From a virus: a stretch of DNA of 64,000 nucleotides. How positions within the stretch are numbered: position 1 is the stretch's first letter; every line of letters begins with the position of its first letter. Below, in pieces: positions 19,956-30,347 of the stretch. The notes below the pieces were generated by a model, which saw only the letters and a list, made by a program, of their open reading frames with translations, searched no databases and was not told the DNA's origin. The stretch is from the IMG/VR virus record IMGVR_UViG_3300021399_000164, positions 1,293 through 65,292 of that record. One strand, written 5' to 3'. The position numbers were made by a program, and so were the translations under genes.

Positions 19956-20494
19956 GAGTTGATACCGGTACATCTTCATTTTTCAGGTGGCGGGGGGGGG
20001 CGTGTGCGGCGGCGGCAGGGATGGTGCATATCACCCTCTTGTCGAAAAAAAAATTTCCGAAAAAAATTTTCAGAAAAACGAAAAAACGGAAAATTTGTTT
20101 GTTTGTCATTTATATTGTTTATTGTTTTGGTTGATTAAATTAAGAATTGTGCTTGATTTAGTGTCTGCGGTGCGTTGTATTGCGTTTTATTTATTCAGAT
20201 GATAAATTGTCCATCTTTTTATTTTTCGTGCGTTACATGGCATTTTATGGAATTTTTGCTTAATTAGTTATAATTTTGCATGTTTTTTTTGTTTATGGGG
20301 TATAAAAAATTTCTTTTTTTTTGTTTTTTTTCTTTTTTTTATAGTACATAGTACATAGTGTTTAAATATATTAGTTATGCATACTAGTATAGTGTTTTAG
20401 TTAATTGTTATTGTTAATATTTAGTAGTTGTTGTATTTATTTTTATATATTATATATATAATAGTTGTTTTGTTGTTTTTATTTTGCCAAAATA

Positions 20495-20528: not shown

Positions 20529-20643
20529 GAAGGAAATCGCAAAACAGGTTATAAGATATAAATATATAGGCAGGTGTTTTTTGATTTTGGTGAAGTGTTT
20601 TTTGTTTAAAAAATATATCAACAAACGTTTTATTTTTATTTTT

Positions 20644-21411
20644 ATGGAAGTAATGAAGATTGATTACACGGAAGGTTGCAAGTTGCGTGTTGTGACGTTG
20701 TTTAGTGGTTATGACAGTCAATGTTTGGCATTAGACCGTTTGCGTCGTGTTTATCCAGAGTTCGCATATGAGTTGGTCGGTTGGTGTGAGATAGACCGTG
20801 GTGCGATAGTTGCCCATAACGCATTATATCCAGAGGCTGTGGATTTGAATTTGGGTGACATAAGTTTGGTTGACGCGAAAGATGTGCCTGATTGTGATTT
20901 GATGACGTGGAGTTTTCCTTGTACTGACATAAGTGGTGCTGGTCGTCAGGCAGGATTGTCGAAGGACAGTGGTACCAGGAGCAGTTTGGCATGGGAGGCG
21001 TTGCGTATATTTCGTGTCAAGCGTCCGAAATATTTATTGATGGAGAACGTGTCTGATTTGGTTGGCAGTAAGTTCATAAAGGATTTTCACGCGTTGTTGC
21101 GTGAGTTGGATGACATAGGTTATGACAGTTTCACTCAGGTGTTGGACGCTCGTGATTATGGTGTGCCTCAGCACAGGGAGCGTGTGTTTGTGGTGTCGAT
21201 ATTGCGTGATGCTTGTGATGGTGTTCCGTATTATAATTTTCCAGAGCCGTTTGGTTGTGAGAAGGTGTTAGAGGACTTATTGGAGGATGAGGTTGACCGC
21301 AGTTATTATTTATCGAAGGACAGGGTATTGAATTTTTCTGATGGTTCGGAATTGTCTGATTCTGATTCTGATTTTGGTATGTTGTTTGATGATGTTGAAG
21401 AAATAGATTAA
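20644..21411 (+). CDS. C5 cytosine DNA methyltransferase, N-terminal part (motifs I-VIII)
   Basis: LFSGYD, CEID, GDI, SFPCTDIS.AG, MENV, YGVPQHRERVF; stops before motifs IX-X; start moved to the ATG at 20644. Confidence 0.9.
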   Translation: MEVMKIDYTEGCKLRVVTLFSGYDSQCLALDRLRRVYPEFAYELVGWCEIDRGAIVAHNALYPEAVDLNLGDISLVDAKDVPDCDLMTWSFPCTDISGAGRQAGLSKDSGTRSSLAWEALRIFRVKRPKYLLMENVSDLVGSKFIKDFHALLRELDDIGYDSFTQVLDARDYGVPQHRERVFVVSILRDACDGVPYYNFPEPFGCEKVLEDLLEDEVDRSYYLSKDRVLNFSDGSELSDSDSDFGMLFDDVEEID

Positions 21412-21415
21412 GATT

Positions 21416-21631
21416 ATGTATAAGCGAGTGATTCCAGTTTTGCATCGTTTTCTTGTAGATTGCAAGAAAGACGGTCGGGTCGGCAAGTATTACATAGATT
21501 GTCAGTTTGGCAGGGTGGGTTATGTTGATGACAAGATAAGTGGTACGATAAACACCCGTGTAGATGCGTCTGGTGCAACATTTTTGGTTGAGGTGTATGG
21601 AAAAGTTCATAATGCAGAAGCAGGGTCGTAA
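21416..21631 (+). CDS. MTase variable-region-like mini-ORF a
   Basis: ISGTINTR...TFLVEVY. Confidence 0.55.
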   Translation: MYKRVIPVLHRFLVDCKKDGRVGKYYIDCQFGRVGYVDDKISGTINTRVDASGATFLVEVYGKVHNAEAGS

Positions 21632-21908
21632 GGGTGGCAAGATGCGGTTATTCAAGATTTATTCGCCCACGATTTGTTGTAATTATTTTAGTGATATGGT
21701 TCCGTATGTTGTGATAAGTAGGCAAAGGGCGGTTATTTCGCGTCGCAGTTGTGCTTTACGTAAGCGTTTTCGTGCTGACGGTACTACGGCCAGGTATTTG
21801 GAGATAGGTACTGACAAAGGTGTTTCGTTGTGTTTGTCTTCAAATTTTGTTGAAAAAGATTCGGTTATATTGGAAATATATGATAAGAAAGTTGATAAAC
21901 GTATGTGA
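21597..21908 (+). CDS. MTase variable-region-like mini-ORF b (two units)
   Basis: YSPTICC...PYVV and LEIGTDKGVSLCLSS..VEKDSVILEIY. Confidence 0.6.
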   Translation: MEKFIMQKQGRKGGKMRLFKIYSPTICCNYFSDMVPYVVISRQRAVISRRSCALRKRFRADGTTARYLEIGTDKGVSLCLSSNFVEKDSVILEIYDKKVDKRM

Positions 21909-22095
21909 CGATGGCAATGCTCGTACGATTTTAAGCGGTTGTTTCAAGTTCGGTTGGAAGAATCTGCTGAATTACGGTGGGGCGTCTATGACATACGTTA
22001 TTGAAATTTATTGGAAAAAGAAAGTTAAAACCATACATGATAGTAGGCAGTTTGCAGAGAAACGCTGCGAAAGTACTTCTAAATCAACGATTTAG
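21880..22095 (+). CDS. MTase variable-region-like mini-ORF c
   Basis: INVCDDGNARTILSGCFKFG..N...MTYVIEIY. Confidence 0.6.
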   Translation: MIRKLINVCDDGNARTILSGCFKFGWKNLLNYGGASMTYVIEIYWKKKVKTIHDSRQFAEKRCESTSKSTI

Positions 22096-22191
22096 GGGGG
22101 GTATTGTCCTACGATTGGCACGACTGATGTCGGATTGCCAATATTAATATTGGTAAGAAATGAAAGAAAAGAGACTGATACAGTTGTTTAA
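22037..22191 (+). pseudogene. mini-ORF d interrupted at a G7 tract
   Basis: MIVGSLQRNAAK... and ...GYCPTIGTTDVGLPILILV lie in different frames across G7 (22095-22101); G8 would join them. Confidence 0.5.
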
Positions 22192-22330
22192 TTTGTTCCC
22201 TGACAGGTTCCATGGTCGTTGTGACAGGGGAAAAGTATTTAGCGTGAAGGGTGTTGCCCCGACAATACACACTATGGGTGGTGGTATGTTAGAGCCGAAG
22301 ATAATAAAAGTGAATGGAAAGTATTTATGA
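22160..22330 (+). CDS. MTase variable-region-like mini-ORF e (not in ORF track)
   Basis: GKVFSVKGVAPTIHTMGGGMLEPKII, the typical phage Dcm variable-region unit. Confidence 0.7.
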   Translation: MKEKRLIQLFNLFPDRFHGRCDRGKVFSVKGVAPTIHTMGGGMLEPKIIKVNGKYL

Positions 22331-22566
22331 AGAAACTTGGAATCAGGATATGTAACGGTGTTGACATGACAAGGAGTTGTTCTTGTCAGATTCGTGGCGG
22401 TGTGCGTGGCTTTGACGACAGGACAAATGCGATAGACACGTTTTCTAACGACACATTCCCTACGATTCGTACAATAAGCGGTTTTGTTGGTGTGATAATA
22501 CCTAAGCAACATAAAGTATGTGGATTTGGCGATACCCGAGAGGTTTGTTCTGTGGCGGATTCATGA
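22327..22566 (+). CDS. MTase variable-region-like mini-ORF f
   Basis: TFPTIRT; ATGA overlap with ORF e. Confidence 0.55.
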   Translation: MKKLGIRICNGVDMTRSCSCQIRGGVRGFDDRTNAIDTFSNDTFPTIRTISGFVGVIIPKQHKVCGFGDTREVCSVADS

Positions 22567-23096
22567 AAGTTGGTGAAATGCCGACAATATCTTGTTCTTC
22601 TTTTGAGCACAACAATTATTTAGTAATTCAAGATAAAATGAACAAAATGGGAACTGGAATAACGGTCGGTAAATTAAGACCGACAAAAGGTAAGGTTCAT
22701 CAGCAGGACTTTGTGCAACGTTCAGATGGTGTATGCCGTGCGATTCCAGCTGGAACGCATGGGTCGACGCCGCATTTGCTGAAGACTATAATAATTAACA
22801 AAAAAAACAAGAAAATGGAAACAAAGAAAGAAAAAAAGAGTTTGATTCCTTTGACATTGCCGAAGGAGCTTGAGGATTTGGATTTTGAGATACGCAAGTT
22901 GACGCCTAGGGAGTGTTTCAGGATTATGGATGTTGATGACGCGGACATTGACAAGATTCAGTCGACAGGATTAAGCAAGAGCGCCCAATATAAGTTGGCT
23001 GGAAATTCGATTTGCGTGAATGTTTTGTATCATTTGTTCAGAAAAATGTTCATCGAGAAAGAAAATGAGTCTCGTCAATTGAATTTGTTCGGATAA
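22518..23096 (+). CDS. C5 methyltransferase C-terminal part (motifs IX-X) with two variable units
   Basis: MPTISCSSFEHNNYLV; DGVCRAI; IRKLTPRECFRIM; QYKLAGNSI. Confidence 0.88.
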   Translation: MWIWRYPRGLFCGGFMKVGEMPTISCSSFEHNNYLVIQDKMNKMGTGITVGKLRPTKGKVHQQDFVQRSDGVCRAIPAGTHGSTPHLLKTIIINKKNKKMETKKEKKSLIPLTLPKELEDLDFEIRKLTPRECFRIMDVDDADIDKIQSTGLSKSAQYKLAGNSICVNVLYHLFRKMFIEKENESRQLNLFG

Positions 23097-23098
23097 TT

Positions 23099-23132
23099 TT
23101 TTGAATATTCAAATTAATTGTTTACCTTTGCA
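23099..23132 (+). promoter_or_regulatory. promoter with palindromic box
   Basis: TTTTGAATATTCAAAT-N8-TACCTTTGCA. Confidence 0.8.
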
Positions 23133-23279
23133 TTGTAGAACGCATGAGAAAGCATTGTCAACCACAAAAGATGCTTTTGACTTATAGGATAAAGTTATAA
23201 CTGATTTGTGTAACTGGCGGGTATGAAGAGGAGTGGTTGCCTTGGATTATCCGCCAGCTGCCTTAACAACCACAATATT

Positions 23280-24149
23280 ATGATAGAAAACAACAATTAC
23301 ATTACGGTTTTGGGTTGGATGGTAAATGCCCTAGGATTAAGTGGCAATGAATTATTATGCTATTCTGTTATTTACGGCTTTTGTCAGGATGGTGAGAGTT
23401 GTTTTAATGGGAGTAGGAAATACATTTCAGATTGGTTGGGATGTTCGTTGCCGACAGTAGACAAAGTATTGAAGAGTTTAATGGAAAAGGGGTTGATAAC
23501 AAAGACGGTTGAAACACGGAACAAGGTTGTTTTCAACTCTTACAGAACAGTCAAAACATATCAGAATATTAAGTTTGGGGGGGTAGCAGAAAATTTTACA
23601 GGGTATAAAAATTCTTTACAGGGGTATAAAGAAATTTTACATGATAATAAAGATATATTAATAGATATAGAAAAAAAAGAAAATATACTAAAAGAAAAAA
23701 AAGACGAGCTTTTTGAGGAATGTTGGAAAGCATATCGGAGAAAAGGTAGCAAAGGAAAGTCGAAAACATATTGGGATAAGTTGACGAATGAAGAAAAGGA
23801 AATGGTGTTGCCGCATATAAGGGCATATGTTGAAAGCAGGGAAGTCAGATTTCAGAAAGACTTTGAGCGTTATTTACGTGACAAGATATTCAAGTCGGTA
23901 GTATATAAAGACAACAACGTGTCCTATGACCCATCAATGTTTATTGATGGAAAGTATATGCCTCAAGGTTTCAATATCTGGTATGATGAGGATTGCGGTA
24001 TGTATTGCAGCATGGACAATTTTTATGATGAAAGAATCTATGACGGGTATACTGACGAGAATCGTCCTGATGGTGCGAAGATAAAGCTTAACAATGCCCG
24101 TGGGGTTATAGTATGGGATAAGAAAACTAAAAAGTGGAACAAATACTAA
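23280..24149 (+). CDS. phage replication initiator (N-terminal winged HTH)
   Basis: NYITVLGWM...LSGNELL.YS.IYGF, L.EKGLI.K; C-terminal FEECWKAY.RK..K domain; upstream of the helicase. Confidence 0.75.
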   Translation: MIENNNYITVLGWMVNALGLSGNELLCYSVIYGFCQDGESCFNGSRKYISDWLGCSLPTVDKVLKSLMEKGLITKTVETRNKVVFNSYRTVKTYQNIKFGGVAENFTGYKNSLQGYKEILHDNKDILIDIEKKENILKEKKDELFEECWKAYRRKGSKGKSKTYWDKLTNEEKEMVLPHIRAYVESREVRFQKDFERYLRDKIFKSVVYKDNNVSYDPSMFIDGKYMPQGFNIWYDEDCGMYCSMDNFYDERIYDGYTDENRPDGAKIKLNNARGVIVWDKKTKKWNKY

Positions 24150-24160
24150 CAAGAAGAAAA

Positions 24161-26257
24161 ATGGACATTGACGAAATATATAAGTGGCATAAGGTCTTCA
24201 AACGGCCTGATGAACTGTTTGAGATAAGGATATTGGGTAAATTCCAATATAGCGGTTATTTCAAGTCGGTTGACAAGATGATTGACGCAATAAAGCCTTA
24301 TTGTGAATTAGATGATGAGCAGATTTATTTCACGTTGAATGAGATAAACGAGGCTTGTTATGGGAGACAGCAATGCGAGAAGATTGTGAAATCCCCGAAA
24401 GCGACAACTGCTGACGGTGACATAACTCGCAGACGGTGGCTTTTGATAGATTTTGACCCGAAGCGTGCGACTGGTGTCAATTCGTCTGATGAGGAGTTAG
24501 AACTGGCGCATAAGAAAGCGCAGAATGTGTTTATCTATCTTCGCAGATGCGGATTCGCAGACCCTGTGATATGTATATCGGGCAACGGATGGCATTTGTT
24601 GTTTCGGATAGATTTGCCGAATGACAATGAAACGACAGAACTTTTGAAGTCTTTCTTGCAGTCTTTGTCTGTGATGTTCACTGATAATGATGTTGAGATA
24701 GACGAGAAGGTGTTCAATGCTGGACGTATATGCAAGTTGTACGGCACGACCGCAAAAAAGGGGGCGAATCTTGACAACCGTCCGTGGCGTGAGGCGATGA
24801 TTGTCTATGTTCCTGACGAGATAAAAACGGTCACGATTGAGCAGATAAAGTCGGTGGCTGGCTTGTTGCCGAAAGAGTCTGTGCAACCTCTACCGTCAAA
24901 TTGGCACGGAAACAGGGATGAGAAATTTGACTTGGAATCTTTCTTGAATCAGCATAACATAGGATATAAGAAAGCTAATACCGCTGACGGAGTGAAATAC
25001 ATACTTGACCATTGTTTCTTCAATGAGGCACACAAAGGGAAAGATGCGGTGATATTCCAATATAACAGCGGTGCGATAAATTATATATGCTTACACAATT
25101 CTTGCAGGGGGCATACGTGGCGTGAGATGCGTCTTGCGCTTGACCCACACGCATACGATTATGAGAATCAGCCGAGGCAATACAGGCAGATAATTCCGCA
25201 ACAGGCAAAATATGTGCCGCAACAAAAGCCGAAATATGAAATCAAGGACGAGTTACCAGAACTTGGTGAGAAATGGTTGTCGATGTCAAAGATAAACAAA
25301 GTTGATTTGACGAAACTTGACAAGGTGAAGACTGGGTTTGTGGAATTGGACAAAAGGATTGGCGGACTTTATTTTTGTGAGGTGACAATTGTTTCTGGAA
25401 GTAATGCTAGTGGCAAATCAAGTTGGCTGAACACGTTATTGTTGAACATCATTCAGCAGGGATATAAGGTGGCATTGTGGTCAGGAGAGCTACGTGCGGA
25501 CATCCTCAAGTCATGGATTCAGATGGTGGCGGCTGGAAAACAATATTTACGTGAGTCGCAATATGATGATGGACGTTATTATGTTCCAGATGTCATAGGT
25601 GCTAAGATAGATGATTGGTTGGATGGCAAGTTTTACTTGTATAACAACGAATACGGAACGAAATCATCACAGATATTGAATGATATGGGGATATTGTTGA
25701 AAGCAAATATCAAAGTGTTTATTCTTGACAATATGATGTCAATGGATATAAGCGATTATGACGGGGATAAAAATGACAGGCAAAAAACATTTATTCTCAA
25801 CATAAAGGATTTTGCGATGAAGAATCAGGTGCATGTTATATTGGTTGCACACCCAAGGAAATCAATGGCATTTTTAAGGAAGACTGATATAAGTGGTTCT
25901 GGCGATATAACGAATGCCGTTGATAATTGCTTTATAATACATAGAACCAACGAAGATTTTATTCATGCAATTTCAGATTTTTACGACAATGGGAAAGCAA
26001 ATTATTTCAGGCAATTTGGCAATGTCTTGGCAGTTGAGAAGAATCGTCTTTATGGTGTTGTTGATTTAATGATTGGCATGCATTATGAAATTGAAAGTAG
26101 ACGATTCAAGAATACAGCTGATGAACAAGTGCATTATGGATGGGAAGAAATACCAGAACAACAACAAGTGACGTTTGAACAGCCCAAAGTTGTTTATGAT
26201 ATGCCAAAAAACAATATAGATTACTATTTGGACGATGATTCGGACAGACCATTTTAG
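24161..26257 (+). CDS. primase-helicase fusion (AEP-like primase, Zn motif, SF4 helicase)
   Basis: LIDFD, SGNGWH, C.F...H/CLHNSC, Walker A GSNASGKS, ILDN, LVAHPRK, DISGSGDI. Confidence 0.88.
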   Translation: MDIDEIYKWHKVFKRPDELFEIRILGKFQYSGYFKSVDKMIDAIKPYCELDDEQIYFTLNEINEACYGRQQCEKIVKSPKATTADGDITRRRWLLIDFDPKRATGVNSSDEELELAHKKAQNVFIYLRRCGFADPVICISGNGWHLLFRIDLPNDNETTELLKSFLQSLSVMFTDNDVEIDEKVFNAGRICKLYGTTAKKGANLDNRPWREAMIVYVPDEIKTVTIEQIKSVAGLLPKESVQPLPSNWHGNRDEKFDLESFLNQHNIGYKKANTADGVKYILDHCFFNEAHKGKDAVIFQYNSGAINYICLHNSCRGHTWREMRLALDPHAYDYENQPRQYRQIIPQQAKYVPQQKPKYEIKDELPELGEKWLSMSKINKVDLTKLDKVKTGFVELDKRIGGLYFCEVTIVSGSNASGKSSWLNTLLLNIIQQGYKVALWSGELRADILKSWIQMVAAGKQYLRESQYDDGRYYVPDVIGAKIDDWLDGKFYLYNNEYGTKSSQILNDMGILLKANIKVFILDNMMSMDISDYDGDKNDRQKTFILNIKDFAMKNQVHVILVAHPRKSMAFLRKTDISGSGDITNAVDNCFIIHRTNEDFIHAISDFYDNGKANYFRQFGNVLAVEKNRLYGVVDLMIGMHYEIESRRFKNTADEQVHYGWEEIPEQQQVTFEQPKVVYDMPKNNIDYYLDDDSDRPF

Positions 26258-26296
26258 AGATAATAAATAAATGTTCAACTAAATAATTTTCAAGAA

Positions 26297-28219
26297 ATGA
26301 AAACAAGTTTGTTAGATGTGCAAAAGGTTGATACAGAGTTTCGTTTGAATCACAACCGTATTGGTTTATTTAATTCTCATTTTCAGAATTTCAAGCAATT
26401 CGGAGTTCCAAAGGCACAGTTAATTATTGCCGATGTTCCATATTGTTATGACGCGGAAACAGAATGTTTTACCCGTAATGGGTGGAAACATTACAATGAA
26501 ATCACAATGGATGATGAAGTTTTGTCGCTTAATCATGAAACACAAGAAATGGAATATAGCGGCATCGCAAATATAATAGTTCGTGATTGCGATGAACCAA
26601 TGGTAAGTTTTAGTACCACAGACTTGAACTTATTTGTATCATCAAAACATCGGTGTTATACTGTGGAAAAGTTTATTCCTAATCTTAAATATGGGAAACG
26701 GATACGCAACAGAAAAAGAAATAATGTTGAGAATATACGTCTTGCAGAAAGTATAACGGATACTTCTTCAATTCCAAGAAGCGGTTATAAGTGGATTGGT
26801 GGACATATTGAGGAATATGTGGAAATCCCATGCGTTAAAATAAAACACAATGGGAAAACACGAAAATACCACATGACGAAAAGCATAAAGGTTGATACAA
26901 GAACATGGTTGCGTTTCTTTGGATTATGGCTTGCCGACGGTTGTACCACGAAATCTGGGTCTGGCTATGTTGTTAGCATAAAACAACACAACAACAACCG
27001 CTACAAAGTTGTTGAAATCTTAAACGCCTTACCATTTGATTATTCCGAACATCAAAACATCGGTAGAGACGTGGCTAATTATAACATATATTCAAAGCAA
27101 CTTTATTCTTATCTCACACAATTTGGCAAAAGCAGGGGTAAGTTTATTCCTCGTTGGATATTAGATTTGCCAAAAGATTATCTAACCATCTTTTGGGAAG
27201 CATATACGTTTGGTGATAGCCATCCGAATGGGCAAGGAATTAGAATAAGTTCTATGTCTGAAAAACTTATTATAGGATTGCAAGAAGTTGCACTTAAACT
27301 TGGAACAATATGTCAAATACGCACACAAGAAACAAGGACTGGTGTGCTATATTATTTCCAATATAATCCCAAATCACGCAATATTAAATATGGGAAAAAG
27401 GAAATTGTGGATGGGTACAACAACTTGATGTGGTGCTTAACACTCAAAAAGAATAGTGTTTTTTTGGTAAGAAGAAACGGACTTATATGTTTTAGTGGAA
27501 ATTGCATTGGGGTTAATGCTTACGGCAGCAATCCTAAATGGTATGTTGATGGTGACAATAAGAACGGTGAAAGCGAACTGGCTGGCGAGGAGTTCTTTGC
27601 AACCGACAAAGATTTCCGTCCAGCAGAGTTTATGCACTTTTGCAGCCAAATGCTCCGTCCAGAACCGAAAGAAAAAGGCAAAGCACCATGTATGGTGCTG
27701 TTTTGTGAATTTGAACAACAATTCTATTTTATTGAACTTGCAAAAAGATATGGGTTTAAACATTATATCAATCTGGTATTTCGCAAGAACTACAGCGCAC
27801 AGGTCTTAAAGGCAAATATGCGAGTGGTCGGCAATTGTGAATATGGATTGATTCTTTATCGTGACAAACTGCCGAAATTCAACAATAACGGGCAGATGGT
27901 CATGAATTGTATTGATTATCCTCGAGAATTGGGATGTGAGCGGATTCATCCGACACAAAAAAGCTTGCCGTTATTGAAATTCTTGATTGAGTTATTCACA
28001 GATGTGGATGATGTTGTGATTGACCCTGTTGCTGGAAGTGGTTCTTCACTCATTGCTGCTATGCAGTTAAATAGGAAAGCTTATGGATTTGAGATAAGCA
28101 AAAGATTTTATACGGAAGCTTGTGGCTTGATAAGGAAGAATGGGGGGCATGTTGATTTATTCAATGAAAGTCCTCAGTTAAAGAAACGTGAATTATATAC
28201 ACAGCAAAAATTATTCTGA
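26297..28219 (+). CDS. N6A/N4C DNA methyltransferase (beta class) containing an intein
   Basis: DVPY catalytic motif, HPTQKS, VIDPVAGSGS; about 353-aa insert. Confidence 0.9.
   Translation: MKTSLLDVQKVDTEFRLNHNRIGLFNSHFQNFKQFGVPKAQLIIADVPYCYDAETECFTRNGWKHYNEITMDDEVLSLNHETQEMEYSGIANIIVRDCDEPMVSFSTTDLNLFVSSKHRCYTVEKFIPNLKYGKRIRNRKRNNVENIRLAESITDTSSIPRSGYKWIGGHIEEYVEIPCVKIKHNGKTRKYHMTKSIKVDTRTWLRFFGLWLADGCTTKSGSGYVVSIKQHNNNRYKVVEILNALPFDYSEHQNIGRDVANYNIYSKQLYSYLTQFGKSRGKFIPRWILDLPKDYLTIFWEAYTFGDSHPNGQGIRISSMSEKLIIGLQEVALKLGTICQIRTQETRTGVLYYFQYNPKSRNIKYGKKEIVDGYNNLMWCLTLKKNSVFLVRRNGLICFSGNCIGVNAYGSNPKWYVDGDNKNGESELAGEEFFATDKDFRPAEFMHFCSQMLRPEPKEKGKAPCMVLFCEFEQQFYFIELAKRYGFKHYINLVFRKNYSAQVLKANMRVVGNCEYGLILYRDKLPKFNNNGQMVMNCIDYPRELGCERIHPTQKSLPLLKFLIELFTDVDDVVIDPVAGSGSSLIAAMQLNRKAYGFEISKRFYTEACGLIRKNGGHVDLFNESPQLKKRELYTQQKLF
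26444..27502 (+). mobile_element. intein with LAGLIDADG homing endonuclease
   Basis: Begins CYDAETECFTRNGWK, block B SSKH, FFGLWLADG, ends WCLT...VRRNG..FSGN followed by a +1 Cys. Confidence 0.9.
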
Positions 28220-28220
28220 C

Positions 28221-29006
28221 ATGATAATACCGAACAACATATATCTTGGTGATTGCCTTGAATTGATGCCACAGATTGAAGAAAAATCAGTCGATTTGAT
28301 TCTATGTGATTTACCATACGGTGTTCTGAATCAAAGAAACAAACACGCACAATGGGATTCCATAATCCCTTTTGAACCGCTTTGGGAACAATATAAGAGG
28401 TTAATTAAGGACACAGGAATTATAGTATTGTTCGCACAAGGAATGTTCACGGCAAAATTAATGATGTCAAATCCTGATTGGTGGCGGTATAATCTTGTGT
28501 GGCACAAAGAGATGGTAACAGGATTTCTTGATGCGAACCGCAAACCGCTAAGATGTCATGAAGATATTTGTGTGTTCGCACCCAATTTCTATCAGACAAC
28601 TTATAATCCGCAAATGACCAAAGTGCCATGGGGAGAGAGAAATCATCGTCATGTAAACTCTATAAGAAAAAATTCATGCTATGGTAATTTCAAGGCAAAA
28701 CCGACAAGGATTGCGGATGATAAATATCCGAGGTCAATTATAAGTTTTCCGAAACAAAAAAAAGAAGACGAGATGGAATATAAATATCATCCGACAAACA
28801 AGCCTGTTGATTTGCTCCGCTATCTGATTCTGACTTATTCAAACGAGGGCGATTTGGTTCTCGACAATACTATGGGCAGCGGGTCAACATGTGTGGCTGC
28901 AATAAAGGAAAAGCGGAAGTTTATCGGTATTGAGATTACAGAAGAATATTTTGATATAGCCAAAAGTAGGATTGAAAGGGAGTTGTCACAACCAACATTA
29001 TTTTGA
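28221..29006 (+). CDS. N6A/N4C DNA methyltransferase (beta class)
   Basis: GDCLELM, ILCDLPYG, HPTNKP, VLDNTMGSGST. Confidence 0.92.
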   Translation: MIIPNNIYLGDCLELMPQIEEKSVDLILCDLPYGVLNQRNKHAQWDSIIPFEPLWEQYKRLIKDTGIIVLFAQGMFTAKLMMSNPDWWRYNLVWHKEMVTGFLDANRKPLRCHEDICVFAPNFYQTTYNPQMTKVPWGERNHRHVNSIRKNSCYGNFKAKPTRIADDKYPRSIISFPKQKKEDEMEYKYHPTNKPVDLLRYLILTYSNEGDLVLDNTMGSGSTCVAAIKEKRKFIGIEITEEYFDIAKSRIERELSQPTLF

Positions 29007-29016
29007 TTAAAATAAA

Positions 29017-29050
29017 TTTGGAATATTCAAAAGAAATAACTAAATTTGCA
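29017..29050 (+). promoter_or_regulatory. promoter with conserved box
   Basis: TTTGGAATATTCAAAA-N8-TAAATTTGCA. Confidence 0.8.
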
Positions 29051-29104
29051 AAAGATTTTGTTTTTCTTTCATTGTTGTTAGATTTTTGATAAGTTAAGAT
29101 GGAT

Positions 29105-29176
29105 TGCCATATCGTATAATGGTCAGTACAACAGATTTTGGTTCTGTCGGTCAAGGTTCGATTCCTTGTGTGGCAA
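29105..29176 (+). tRNA. tRNA-Gln(TTG)
   Basis: TGCCATA/TGTGGCA acceptor, GTAT/GTAC D-arm, ACAGA TTTTGGT TCTGT anticodon arm, CAAGG TTCGATT CCTTG T-arm; CCA not encoded. Confidence 0.9.
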
Positions 29177-29219
29177 CAAGTAGTTTTATTTTTTTTATTC
29201 ACCAAAACTGATTTTATTT

Positions 29220-30347
29220 ATGGGAACATTTAGATTCAATGTTGATTCTGTTCTTCCGAAACTTACACAAGTTTCAAATGTCATTGGCAACAAGTCCACC
29301 TTGCCAGTTTTTGAATGCGTATATTTCACAGAGAAAGAAGGTAATCTTTTCCTGAAAGCAAGCGATGGGGAAACTTGGATTGAGATGCGATGTGACGGCG
29401 TGACGATTGAATCAAAGATTGACTTTTGTGTCAACTCAAAGAATTTCGTTTCAACATTAAGAAATTTGTCGGGTGCCGATGTTCGGATTGATATTGATGA
29501 GCAAAAGAACCTGTTGTATGGATTCTATGGAAAGAAAGGTAAATTCAAGTTGCCAATCAGGAAAGGCTCAGAATTTGTTAACGAGACATCAATTGACACA
29601 AGTAAAGTCGTTTCATTGTCCGTTGGTCAGCAAGCATTGGCAAATGCGATACAAAGTACTGACTTTGCGGTCGCCAATGATGAGTTGCGTCCGATAATGA
29701 ATGGAATCCATTTTGATTTTTCACAAAACGGCATGGAGTCAGCGGCAAGTGACGGGCACAGATTGGTTCATTATGTTGACGAAAGTACAAGAATTGATAA
29801 TGAACCAAAGGGATTCACGTTGCCGACCAAACCTTCAAGAATCATTCTCCCTTTGCTTTCAGAATCGTTTATCGACATAGAATTTACCGATGAACAATTA
29901 AGACTGAAATCAGACGATTGGTTCGTACAAACCAGACTTTGCGTAGGTCGTTATCCTAACTACAAAGGAGTGATTCCAAGGAATAATGAAAATCATTCTG
30001 TAGTCAACAAATCGCAATTGCTGAACGTGCTTAACAGGGTTATCCCGTTCGGGAGTGTGAATACCAAGATGGTTAAGATGTTGTTCGGTAACAATGAGAT
30101 TCTCATTTCAGCAGAGGATATAGATTGGTCGACATCTTCTGAGGAGTCGGTCGATTGCCAATATGATGGTGCTAATGGAATCCTGATAGGTTTCAAAGGC
30201 GATTTGCTGACGCAAGTTGTCAGGAACATACAATGTGACGAAATAGCAATTGATATACGAGATTCAAGAACAGCAGCCGTGTTCCGACCATTGAATGACA
30301 TTGAGAACACCAAGTATGTTTCAATTCTCATGCCATTGATGTTATAA
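29220..30347 (+). CDS. dnaN: DNA polymerase III beta sliding clamp
   Basis: FAVANDELRPIMNGIHF, ASDGHRL, GRYPNYKGVIP, C-terminal ILMPLML; 375 aa. Confidence 0.92.
   Translation: MGTFRFNVDSVLPKLTQVSNVIGNKSTLPVFECVYFTEKEGNLFLKASDGETWIEMRCDGVTIESKIDFCVNSKNFVSTLRNLSGADVRIDIDEQKNLLYGFYGKKGKFKLPIRKGSEFVNETSIDTSKVVSLSVGQQALANAIQSTDFAVANDELRPIMNGIHFDFSQNGMESAASDGHRLVHYVDESTRIDNEPKGFTLPTKPSRIILPLLSESFIDIEFTDEQLRLKSDDWFVQTRLCVGRYPNYKGVIPRNNENHSVVNKSQLLNVLNRVIPFGSVNTKMVKMLFGNNEILISAEDIDWSTSSEESVDCQYDGANGILIGFKGDLLTQVVRNIQCDEIAIDIRDSRTAAVFRPLNDIENTKYVSILMPLML

Follow-up and report, generated by a model that had tools for sequence, protein, structure and literature searches.

How can a cytosine-C5 DNA methyltransferase (C5-MTase) choose its target when its catalytic motifs are divided between two genes and the region that should recognize DNA is broken up into small open reading frames (ORFs)? 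The question is raised by a locus at positions 20644-23096 of a 64,000-nt stretch of viral DNA (hereafter the window), which corresponds to positions 1,293 to 65,292 of IMG/VR record IMGVR_UViG_3300021399_000164 (65,292 bases; estimated completeness 82%). Multispecific C5-MTases of Bacillus phages, such as M.SPRI and M.Phi3TI, are single chains with short serial target recognition domains (TRDs), each of which is thought to give one specificity. Here we report a computational analysis of the split locus, which we consider rather likely to be a multispecific orphan phage C5-MTase whose recognition modules are separately translated, exchangeable and partly phase-variable subunits.

The first catalytic part (N-part) is ORF 20644-21411 on the plus strand (255 aa, protein P0001; TAA stop at 21409-21411). 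It matched positions 2-213 of the 324 positions of the Pfam family PF00145 with an E value of 2.7e-43 and contains the catalytic motifs of a C5-MTase, namely I, IV (FPC), VI (ENV) and VIII (QHRER), of which motif I has the family variant FSGYDSQ, shared without change by 33 relatives. This ORF also encodes the proximal variable region and an acidic tail. The C-terminal motifs IX and X were found 1.1 kb downstream in ORF 22518-23096 (plus strand, 192 aa, P0002), which matched positions 252-322 of the same family (E value 3.2e-9); the residues R27, T30, E33 and G63-N64-S65 are invariant in 34 C-terminal parts (C-parts). All catalytic motifs are intact across the two parts, and both the Pfam matches and the reading of the motifs confirm the original prediction, in which motifs I-VIII end at 21411 and motifs IX-X reside in a separate ORF.

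The 1.1 kb between the two flanks are filled by six ORFs on the same strand and in changing frames (start positions modulo 3, in order, 2, 0, 1, 2, 2 and 1, followed by 0 for the last ORF), just as had been predicted, and the region contains about ten TRD-like units. The core of a unit consists of a small residue, a Pro, Arg or Gly, a Thr and an Ile, and is followed 10-25 residues later by a hydrophobic strand. The features are arranged as follows:

21416-21631, plus strand: mini-ORF 1 (71 aa), with unit 1 (core 21509-21595)
21597-21908, plus strand: mini-ORF 2, with units 2-4 fused in one frame (core of unit 2 at 21636-21719; units 3, 21726-21806, and 4, 21819-21881, assigned by eye only); possible ATG starts at 21597, 21612 and 21642, in the ORF list also 21564
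21880-22095, plus strand: mini-ORF 3, with unit 5 (core 21895-22008); ends with TAG at 22093-22095; upstream start at 21820
22037-22191, plus strand: mini-ORF 4, with unit 6; ATG at 22037 (in the ORF list also 22001); frame broken at a G7 tract
22095-22101, plus strand: G7 tract inside unit 6, a candidate on/off switch
22160-22330, plus strand: mini-ORF 5 (56 aa), with unit 7 (core 22229-22312), the most canonical TRD
22327-22566, plus strand: mini-ORF 6 (79 aa), with unit 8 (core from 22417)
22563-23096, plus strand: last ORF, with units 9 (22557-22631) and 10 (22707-22802) fused to motifs IX-X; upstream in-frame ATG at 22518
22800-22807, plus strand: A8 tract between unit 10 and the C-part
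22815-23096, plus strand: C-part proper (93 aa from the internal ATG at 22815), with the strand before motif IX and motifs IX and X

One unit each is thus encoded by the mini-ORFs starting at 21416, 21880, 22037, 22160 and 22327, three by the ORF at 21597-21908 and two by the last ORF. The array of TRD-like units that had been proposed is present, and its count rises from about nine to ten, two of which were recognized by eye.

Every junction in the window has an ATG of its own. The TAA stop of the N-part is followed by four bases and the ATG at 21416; between units 1 and 2, ATGs at 21597 and 21612 precede the stop and a third (21642) lies ten bases past it. The ATG at 21880 is located within the last strand of unit 4, the junction between units 6 and 7 has an ATG at 22160, and the stop and start codons overlap as ATGA at 22327 (units 7 and 8) and 22563 (units 8 and 9). 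The junction ATGs in the contexts GTG TAT GGA (21597), ATA TAT GAT (21880) and AGA AAT GAA (22160), to which the original prediction had drawn attention, are all there, whereas the two ATGA overlaps, the TAA-4-nt-ATG junction, the break of unit 6 at the G7 tract and a layer of homopolymer switching are added by the present analysis. Of the eight frame changes, all coincide with unit boundaries except one, which is found inside unit 6 at the G7 tract. A full chain of ATG-initiated ORFs from the N-part to the C-part was obtained in none of 100 shuffles of the interval. Stop-codon reassignment was rejected as an explanation because the pieces lie in different frames and cannot be joined by recoding of stops; the G7 tract accounts for the only in-frame TAG (22093).

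The unit types of the window recur in other loci. In L025, L046 and L095, the N-part is followed first by an ORF of the unit 1 type; the type of unit 2 was found again in L001 and L095, and that of unit 5 in L003, L046, L049, L095 and L142; unit 6 is intact in its relatives in L025 and L085, and the N-terminal stretch and core of unit 8 are conserved in L001, L025, L085 and L163. The core of unit 7 aligned weakly (E value 0.2) with residues 239-257 of M.HhaI, which we take to be part of its recognition domain, and a unit profile built without the window and L085 matched unit 7 with an E value of 4.6e-18. Searched at E values up to 0.001, the unit-7-type profile recovered 3265 cluster representatives. 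Among the best 150 of these, up to seven unit copies per protein were present, 19 proteins were no longer than 110 aa, and in 24 the unit began within the first six residues. The stand-alone unit proteins among the listed examples have lengths of 54-91 aa, two to six of which precede the first strand of the unit; stand-alone relatives of unit 7 range from 54 to 99 aa. A word-based search with unit 7 among proteins of 30-98 aa gave no candidate with enough shared words; this result carries no weight as to absence, as the word-independent profile search did recover short relatives. The units of the window are not DNA repeats of each other: repeats do not exceed 23 nt, and tandem arrays are limited to A-rich runs and a (TCTGAT)3 microsatellite. 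A recent tandem duplication of DNA with a frame-shifting period (not divisible by three) was likewise rejected, since such repeats do not exist in the window.

A once contiguous multispecific gene that is gathering frameshifts, or a simple accumulation of sequencing errors, might produce a similar picture. Contigs of the Logan collection from four studies (runs X2, X3, X5 and X14) were compared with positions 20600-23150; one of the studies is the likely source study, its run being derived from a different sample, and the run data consist of contigs only, which are 95-99% alike. The split layout was kept in all four runs, and a single continuous ORF occurred in none; the X3 record covers the whole stretch in one piece. 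The split is also present in L085 and in a total of 31 distinct loci, and the continuous reading frame in reads or close relatives with which the original prediction had reckoned as an alternative did not appear. The sequences differ by nine additional bases in unit 1 (X5), by an inserted TTAT behind 21864 that breaks the end of unit 4 (X3 and X5), and by an inserted ATTG behind 21999 (X3 and X5) or a G at 21978 (X2), each of which breaks the end of unit 5. A side observation concerns the tail of the N-part, where a (TCTGAT)3.2 microsatellite at 21355-21373 encodes a Ser-Asp repeat; X2 has 12 nt more in this repeat and X14 has 6 nt less, with the reading frame preserved in both runs.

Substitution patterns point in the same direction. 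The closest relative compared, L085, has a DNA identity of about 81% and shares units 1, 6, 7, 8 and 9 and both core parts with the window; all six shared unit starts are ATG there as well, and the internal ATG of the C-part (22815) is also present. The ratio of nonsynonymous to synonymous substitution rates (dN/dS) in each segment's own frame was 0.30 for the N-part, 0.066 for unit 1, 0.077 for unit 7, 0.31 for unit 8, 0.21 for unit 9 and 0.036 for the C-part; unit 6 gave 0.10 downstream of the tract and 0.40 in the short segment of 19 codons upstream of it. Values in the other frames were 0.87-3.2 (1.5-1.8 for unit 1), or 0.34-0.89 in the short stretch before the tract. In a second pair of loci, L116 and L120 (88% identity), the ratio was 0.17 over the N-part and 0.06 over the C-part, and unit segments ranged from 0.26 to 0.46. 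Judged by these ratios, purifying selection acts on every shared unit in the frame that encodes it, and the neutral evolution of the mini-ORFs that had been considered in the original prediction is at odds with own-frame values of 0.07-0.31. The N-part of L085 carries an intein (L085:1768-2819; matches to Hint_2, Intein_splicing and LAGLIDADG_3) just before the catalytic Cys of motif IV, with an intact frame of 600 aa; the copy in the window has no intein.

Decay or artefact would accommodate the break of unit 6 at the G7 tract, the strain-specific frameshifts in units 4 and 5, the loss of motif X in L001 and the truncated appearance of some mini-ORFs in L142. It is contradicted by the identical frames in independent assemblies of four studies, by the purifying selection on the frame of each unit, by the location of seven of the eight frame changes at unit boundaries, all with ATGs, by the 600-aa frame that the N-part of L085 maintains despite its intein, and by the integrity of all catalytic motifs. 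We regard this explanation as very improbable and largely refuted: because four runs keep the split, own-frame dN/dS is low and the layout occurs in 31 loci, neither assembly error nor decay explains it.

Cassette gain, loss and replacement at conserved junctions, which had been predicted, were seen in two comparisons. X14 contains about 150 extra letters at the junction of units 1 and 2, and 203 different letters replace positions 22386-22577; L085 has one different unit in place of units 2-5 and lacks unit 10. A second layer of variation affects homopolymers. The G tract at 22095-22101 has seven residues in the window and in X2; it is longer by one in X3 and X5 (G8) and shorter by two in X14 (G5). 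In its starting frame, mini-ORF 4 stops at 22147 in the window, whereas with G8 or G5 it continues to the stop at 22189-22191; because the frame of the ATG at 22037 then remains open through the core, unit 6 would be off in the window and X2 and on in X3, X5 and X14. Not all units are needed at once, because units 4 and 5 are frameshifted in sister strains and unit 6 has an off state. One extra A in the A8 tract of X5 shifts units 9-10 out of frame with the C-part, and the frame of L085 is likewise interrupted in this A-rich stretch before its C-part.

Such tracts are characteristic of the arrays. Runs of at least six G number 63 in 27.2 kb of arrays versus 10 in 207 kb of flanks (2.32 vs 0.048 per kb, about 48-fold), and the corresponding numbers of C runs are 6 and 3. 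The whole 64-kb window contains only four runs of at least six G, including that at 22095-22101; a G7 at 23577-23583 lies inside the gene for a helix-turn-helix (HTH) protein that comes directly after the methylase, and a G9 at 19992-20000 is non-coding and upstream of the locus. The loci L036 and L142 differ at three positions in about 1.8 kb, two of which are in G tracts, and L116 and L120 differ in three G tracts; many copies of the unit-7 type break exactly at the Gly run after the core. In phasevarions, a simple-sequence repeat tract in a Type III mod gene switches the whole enzyme in a bacterium. The locus resembles such methyltransferases in that a homopolymer in the coding sequence sets the frame and differs in length between near-identical genomes. 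It is unlike them in that the tracts are situated in single recognition units of a phage enzyme, so that one specificity could switch alone.

The same A and G tracts raise the possibility that the pieces end up in a single long product, or in a few, through frameshifting on the ribosome or slippage during transcription at the junctions and tracts; frameshift fusion was one of the two mechanisms offered by the original prediction. Contiguous relatives with 5-7 TRDs would be natural counterparts of such a product, and slippage could rejoin the C-parts of X5 and L085 that are out of frame at the A-rich run. Seven frame changes would nevertheless be needed in the window, some of them +1 and some -1, and several inefficient shifts in series should make the product very rare. 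Most junctions are free of homopolymers, no -1 frameshift heptamer of the type X XXY YYZ was seen by eye at the two -1 junctions (22300-22330 and 22518-22566), and the start codon at each junction would be superfluous for fusion. We therefore hold fusion by frameshifting to be quite improbable.

The split layout is widespread among relatives of the enzyme. When the best 120 homologs of the N-part among proteins of 140-447 aa were inspected, 116 had a length of 223-315 aa, and some of these may be cut by contig ends. The 161 viral and metagenome loci, which are not independent since the two collections share contigs, comprised 72 contiguous and 35 split loci with a C-part and 43 with an N-part for which no C-part was found; no N-part was obtained for a further 8, and 3 extend beyond the contig end. 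After addition of L001 and removal of five duplicates, 31 distinct split loci remained. A full chain of ATG-initiated ORFs (each of at least 20 aa and starting between -60 and +30 of the previous stop) connects the N-part to the C-part in 16 of them. Each of the nine chains with at least three links was matched in 0 of 100 shuffles, and the one- and two-link chains in 0-8 of 100. ATGA overlaps were found at 14 of 63 junctions, counted with the ATG nearest to the stop and compared with a rough chance expectation of about 1-2. In L142, a TRD is missing from the N-part; six mini-ORFs come next, and then a C-part of 92 aa whose first residue lies four positions ahead of motif IX.

Two further viral loci have peculiarities of their own. 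In L003 (L003:5890-6860), the same 15-nt junction ends every unit and brings about six successive +1 steps; translated in one frame it gives Tyr-Glu-Thr-Glu and a stop, and in the +1 frame it supplies the Met-Arg with which the next unit begins, and this repeated DNA could serve as a recombination site for cassette exchange. The C-part ORF of the viral relative L001 (L001:7636-8969; 64% identity) includes motif IX but ends ahead of motif X, which suggests that this methylase copy may be inactive; an ORF with an NPPY motif (adenine-methylase-like) follows directly.

The nearest relatives in bacterial genome records belong to Bacteroidales (Prevotella, Muribaculaceae, Alistipes and others). The 80 loci in these records include 30 contiguous and 26 split ones, among which L229-L231, L236 and L241 (first ORF of 373 aa) may each represent two separate genes. 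Split loci also occur in cultured Muribaculaceae, namely L212 in Paramuribaculum intestinale DSM 100749 (three ORFs) and L207 in Lepagella muris NM04_E33 (two ORFs), with at least seven units fused in the last ORF of both.

Relatives with only two chains (the one-link chains L029, L040, L103 and L135, and L207 of Lepagella muris) illustrate another explanation, by which the N-part and the last ORF form a two-chain enzyme and the middle mini-ORFs are an unexpressed or, by themselves, useless reservoir of cassettes that junction recombination would move into the expressed first or last position. M.AquI is a precedent for a two-chain enzyme (PMC3404938), and the replacement of cassettes at junctions and the broken units 4 and 5 of sister strains would also be expected of such a store. 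Against this explanation, own-frame dN/dS is low in the middle units 1, 6, 7 and 8 (0.07-0.31, as low as the catalytic parts, at a DNA divergence of about 19%). Every middle unit has kept its junction ATG, ATGA overlaps are common, neither the N-part nor the C-part of L142 contains a TRD, and there are many clusters of stand-alone TRD proteins. We consider a mere cassette store unlikely, though less so than fusion by frameshifting.

Completion of the enzyme in trans by separately made units, the other mechanism of the original prediction, fits better than frameshift fusion because each junction has its own ATG, ATGA overlaps are common, the C-part of L142 is without a TRD, TRD proteins occur by themselves, and the parts were predicted to assemble. 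The joint structure prediction (co-fold) that had been suggested was carried out with the N-part, the 93-aa C-part (chain 2) and the mini-protein of unit 7, together with three controls. It yielded a score of 0.87 versus 0.27 for the best control; 58 of 80 solved complexes attain this mark, as do 2 of 110 mismatched pairs. Three runs shared at least 84% of contacts, and the predicted local distance difference test (pLDDT) value of the partner chain was at least 77. In the predicted complex, residues 48-49 of the unit contact residues 26-29 of the C-part, and residues 27-34 contact residues 175-177 and 208-210 of the N-part, which places the last strand of the unit against the strand ahead of motif IX and its core against the region of motif VIII.

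The following sequence of events is proposed for the assembly of the enzyme in trans. The N-part would supply the catalytic domain with motifs I-VIII and the C-part motifs IX-X. With an ATG at or just before the previous stop codon, terminating ribosomes would restart, resulting in translational coupling along the array. Each mini-protein, or short run of fused units, would then dock between the N-part and the C-part, and the last beta-strand of the unit would pair with the strand ahead of motif IX and thereby complete the small domain. The outcome would be a pool of enzymes with one catalytic core that read different DNA sequences and, by our inference, protect the phage from host restriction. 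Whole cassettes would be gained, lost or replaced at the conserved junctions, and slippage at the G7 tract (unit 6) or the A8 tract (before the C-part) would switch single units or the fusion to the C-part and leave the rest unharmed. The split itself might be advantageous in that a slipped tract or a swapped cassette alters one specificity and motifs IX-X stay in frame. More tentatively, the locus may represent a C5-MTase with Type I logic, that is, a two-chain core with exchangeable, separately translated specificity subunits of 25-70 aa that can be switched singly by slippage or cassette exchange.

Several observations weigh against assembly from separate subunits. The unit profile built without the window and L085 recognized only unit 7, whereas units 6 and 8 scored 4.1 and 3.0 bits compared with 4.3 for the best shuffle, so that one profile does not cover all unit types. 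The TRD nature of the other units rests on type-specific relatives and on an iterated profile (64 domains) seeded with seven units of the window, whose matches in the window follow by construction. Unit 6 is out of frame in the window, and the frameshifts in sister strains remove the terminal strands of unit 4 (X3 and X5) and unit 5 (X2, X3 and X5), which is why some units are dispensable or decaying. The complete ATG chain is absent from 15 of the 31 split loci, of which ten have G tracts and five have none, and the frequency of ATGA overlaps depends on the counting of the ATG nearest to the stop. Contiguous enzymes with 5-7 TRDs exist (P0124, P0125 and P0187; listed examples 576-748 aa), and units 2-4 and 9-10 are fused here; separate units are therefore not required for function. 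The co-fold covers one unit type, the most canonical one (unit 7), and may have passed through memory of, or likeness to, solved single-chain C5-MTases. Finally, data for M.SssI in PMC3404938 suggest that the small domain must stay intact, which disfavors a small domain formed from three chains.

The nearest known systems share individual traits with the locus. Like M.SPRI and M.Phi3TI, it would be an orphan phage C5-MTase with an anti-restriction role, and about ten short TRDs, of types that recur elsewhere, follow each other between motifs VIII and IX. It departs from the single polypeptide of the SPR type in that eight ORFs over three frames make up the locus: the TRDs are separate ORFs with their own starts, the core is in two chains, and homopolymers interrupt units. 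M.AquI and M.EcoHK31I are natural two-chain C5-MTases according to PMC3404938. As described there for M.AquI, the window is split inside the variable region, with motifs I-VIII and IX-X on separate chains, and its N-part and last ORF would form a pair of that type. Unlike these enzymes of two chains and one specificity, the locus has seven or eight ORFs, the middle ones of which are without a catalytic motif; the enzyme would not consist of exactly two chains, as six further ORFs under purifying selection lie between the flanks, and in L142 neither core chain has a TRD. Fragments of M.BspRI, M.BsuRI, M.HhaI and M.SssI that were cut in the variable region complement each other and reassemble to active enzyme in cells (PMC3404938). 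These laboratory bisections consist of two pieces, whereas the small domain would come from three chains here. The specificity subunit HsdS of Type I systems is also a separate protein, encoded directly downstream of hsdM in translational coupling and with an overlapping stop and start, that completes a methyltransferase (PMC3510504), but its fold and chemistry are unrelated (N6-adenine, M2S1, two TRDs per S), and the likeness is one of logic, not of homology. In the literature searched, C5-MTases appear as enzymes of one chain or, rarely, two, with a specificity that is part of the enzyme itself; no description of arrays of TRD mini-genes was found in this literature, most subscription journals being outside its coverage.

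The methylase is the first gene of a rightward module that continues with the HTH protein, a DnaB-like helicase, two N6/N4 methylases and a sliding clamp, and no nuclease was present among the seven neighbors scanned. Because of this gene set, the methylase probably has an orphan, early and protective role. The two N6/N4 methylase genes are located at 26297-28219 (640 aa, with a LAGLIDADG-like insert) and 28188-29006; together with the C5 locus, the phage therefore encodes three DNA methyltransferases. The plus strand is strongly depleted of C over 20644-30347, fading away from the divergent intergenic region. The GC skew falls from 0.42 (N-part) through 0.36 (HTH gene) and 0.24 (helicase gene) to 0.12-0.16 by 26-30 kb, and third codon positions of the N-part contain 11% C and 43% T. 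A blastn search of 20644-23096 (distant mode) against the INPHARED phages returned zero matches.

This study describes a split layout that is real and widespread, with selection on the frame of each unit, a recurring junction anatomy, turnover of cassettes and polymorphic tracts. If the proposed reading is correct, it would explain why hundreds of "truncated Dcm" genes of Bacteroidales phages are not pseudogenes, and it matters for annotation because in gene calls the N-part appears as a short methylase and the mini-genes are overlooked or wrongly labeled. Split methyltransferases have already been engineered for the programmable writing of 5-methylcytosine (m5C) (PMC3404938 and PMC2836561), and the locus would add a ready-made plug-in system for this purpose. 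Cultured Muribaculaceae with related split loci (L212 and L207) are possible laboratory systems, and since these loci are in the genome records of cultured strains, the question is directly testable. For the phages, the locus would represent a new route to gain, lose and switch methylation specificities, and, on the more tentative reading with Type I logic, the resulting combinatorial, bet-hedged methylome would protect against Type II restriction and escape methylation-dependent (Type IV) restriction. In this gut phage, the layout, which is common to many related phages, probably allows the DNA sequences that are protected to be swapped and switched.

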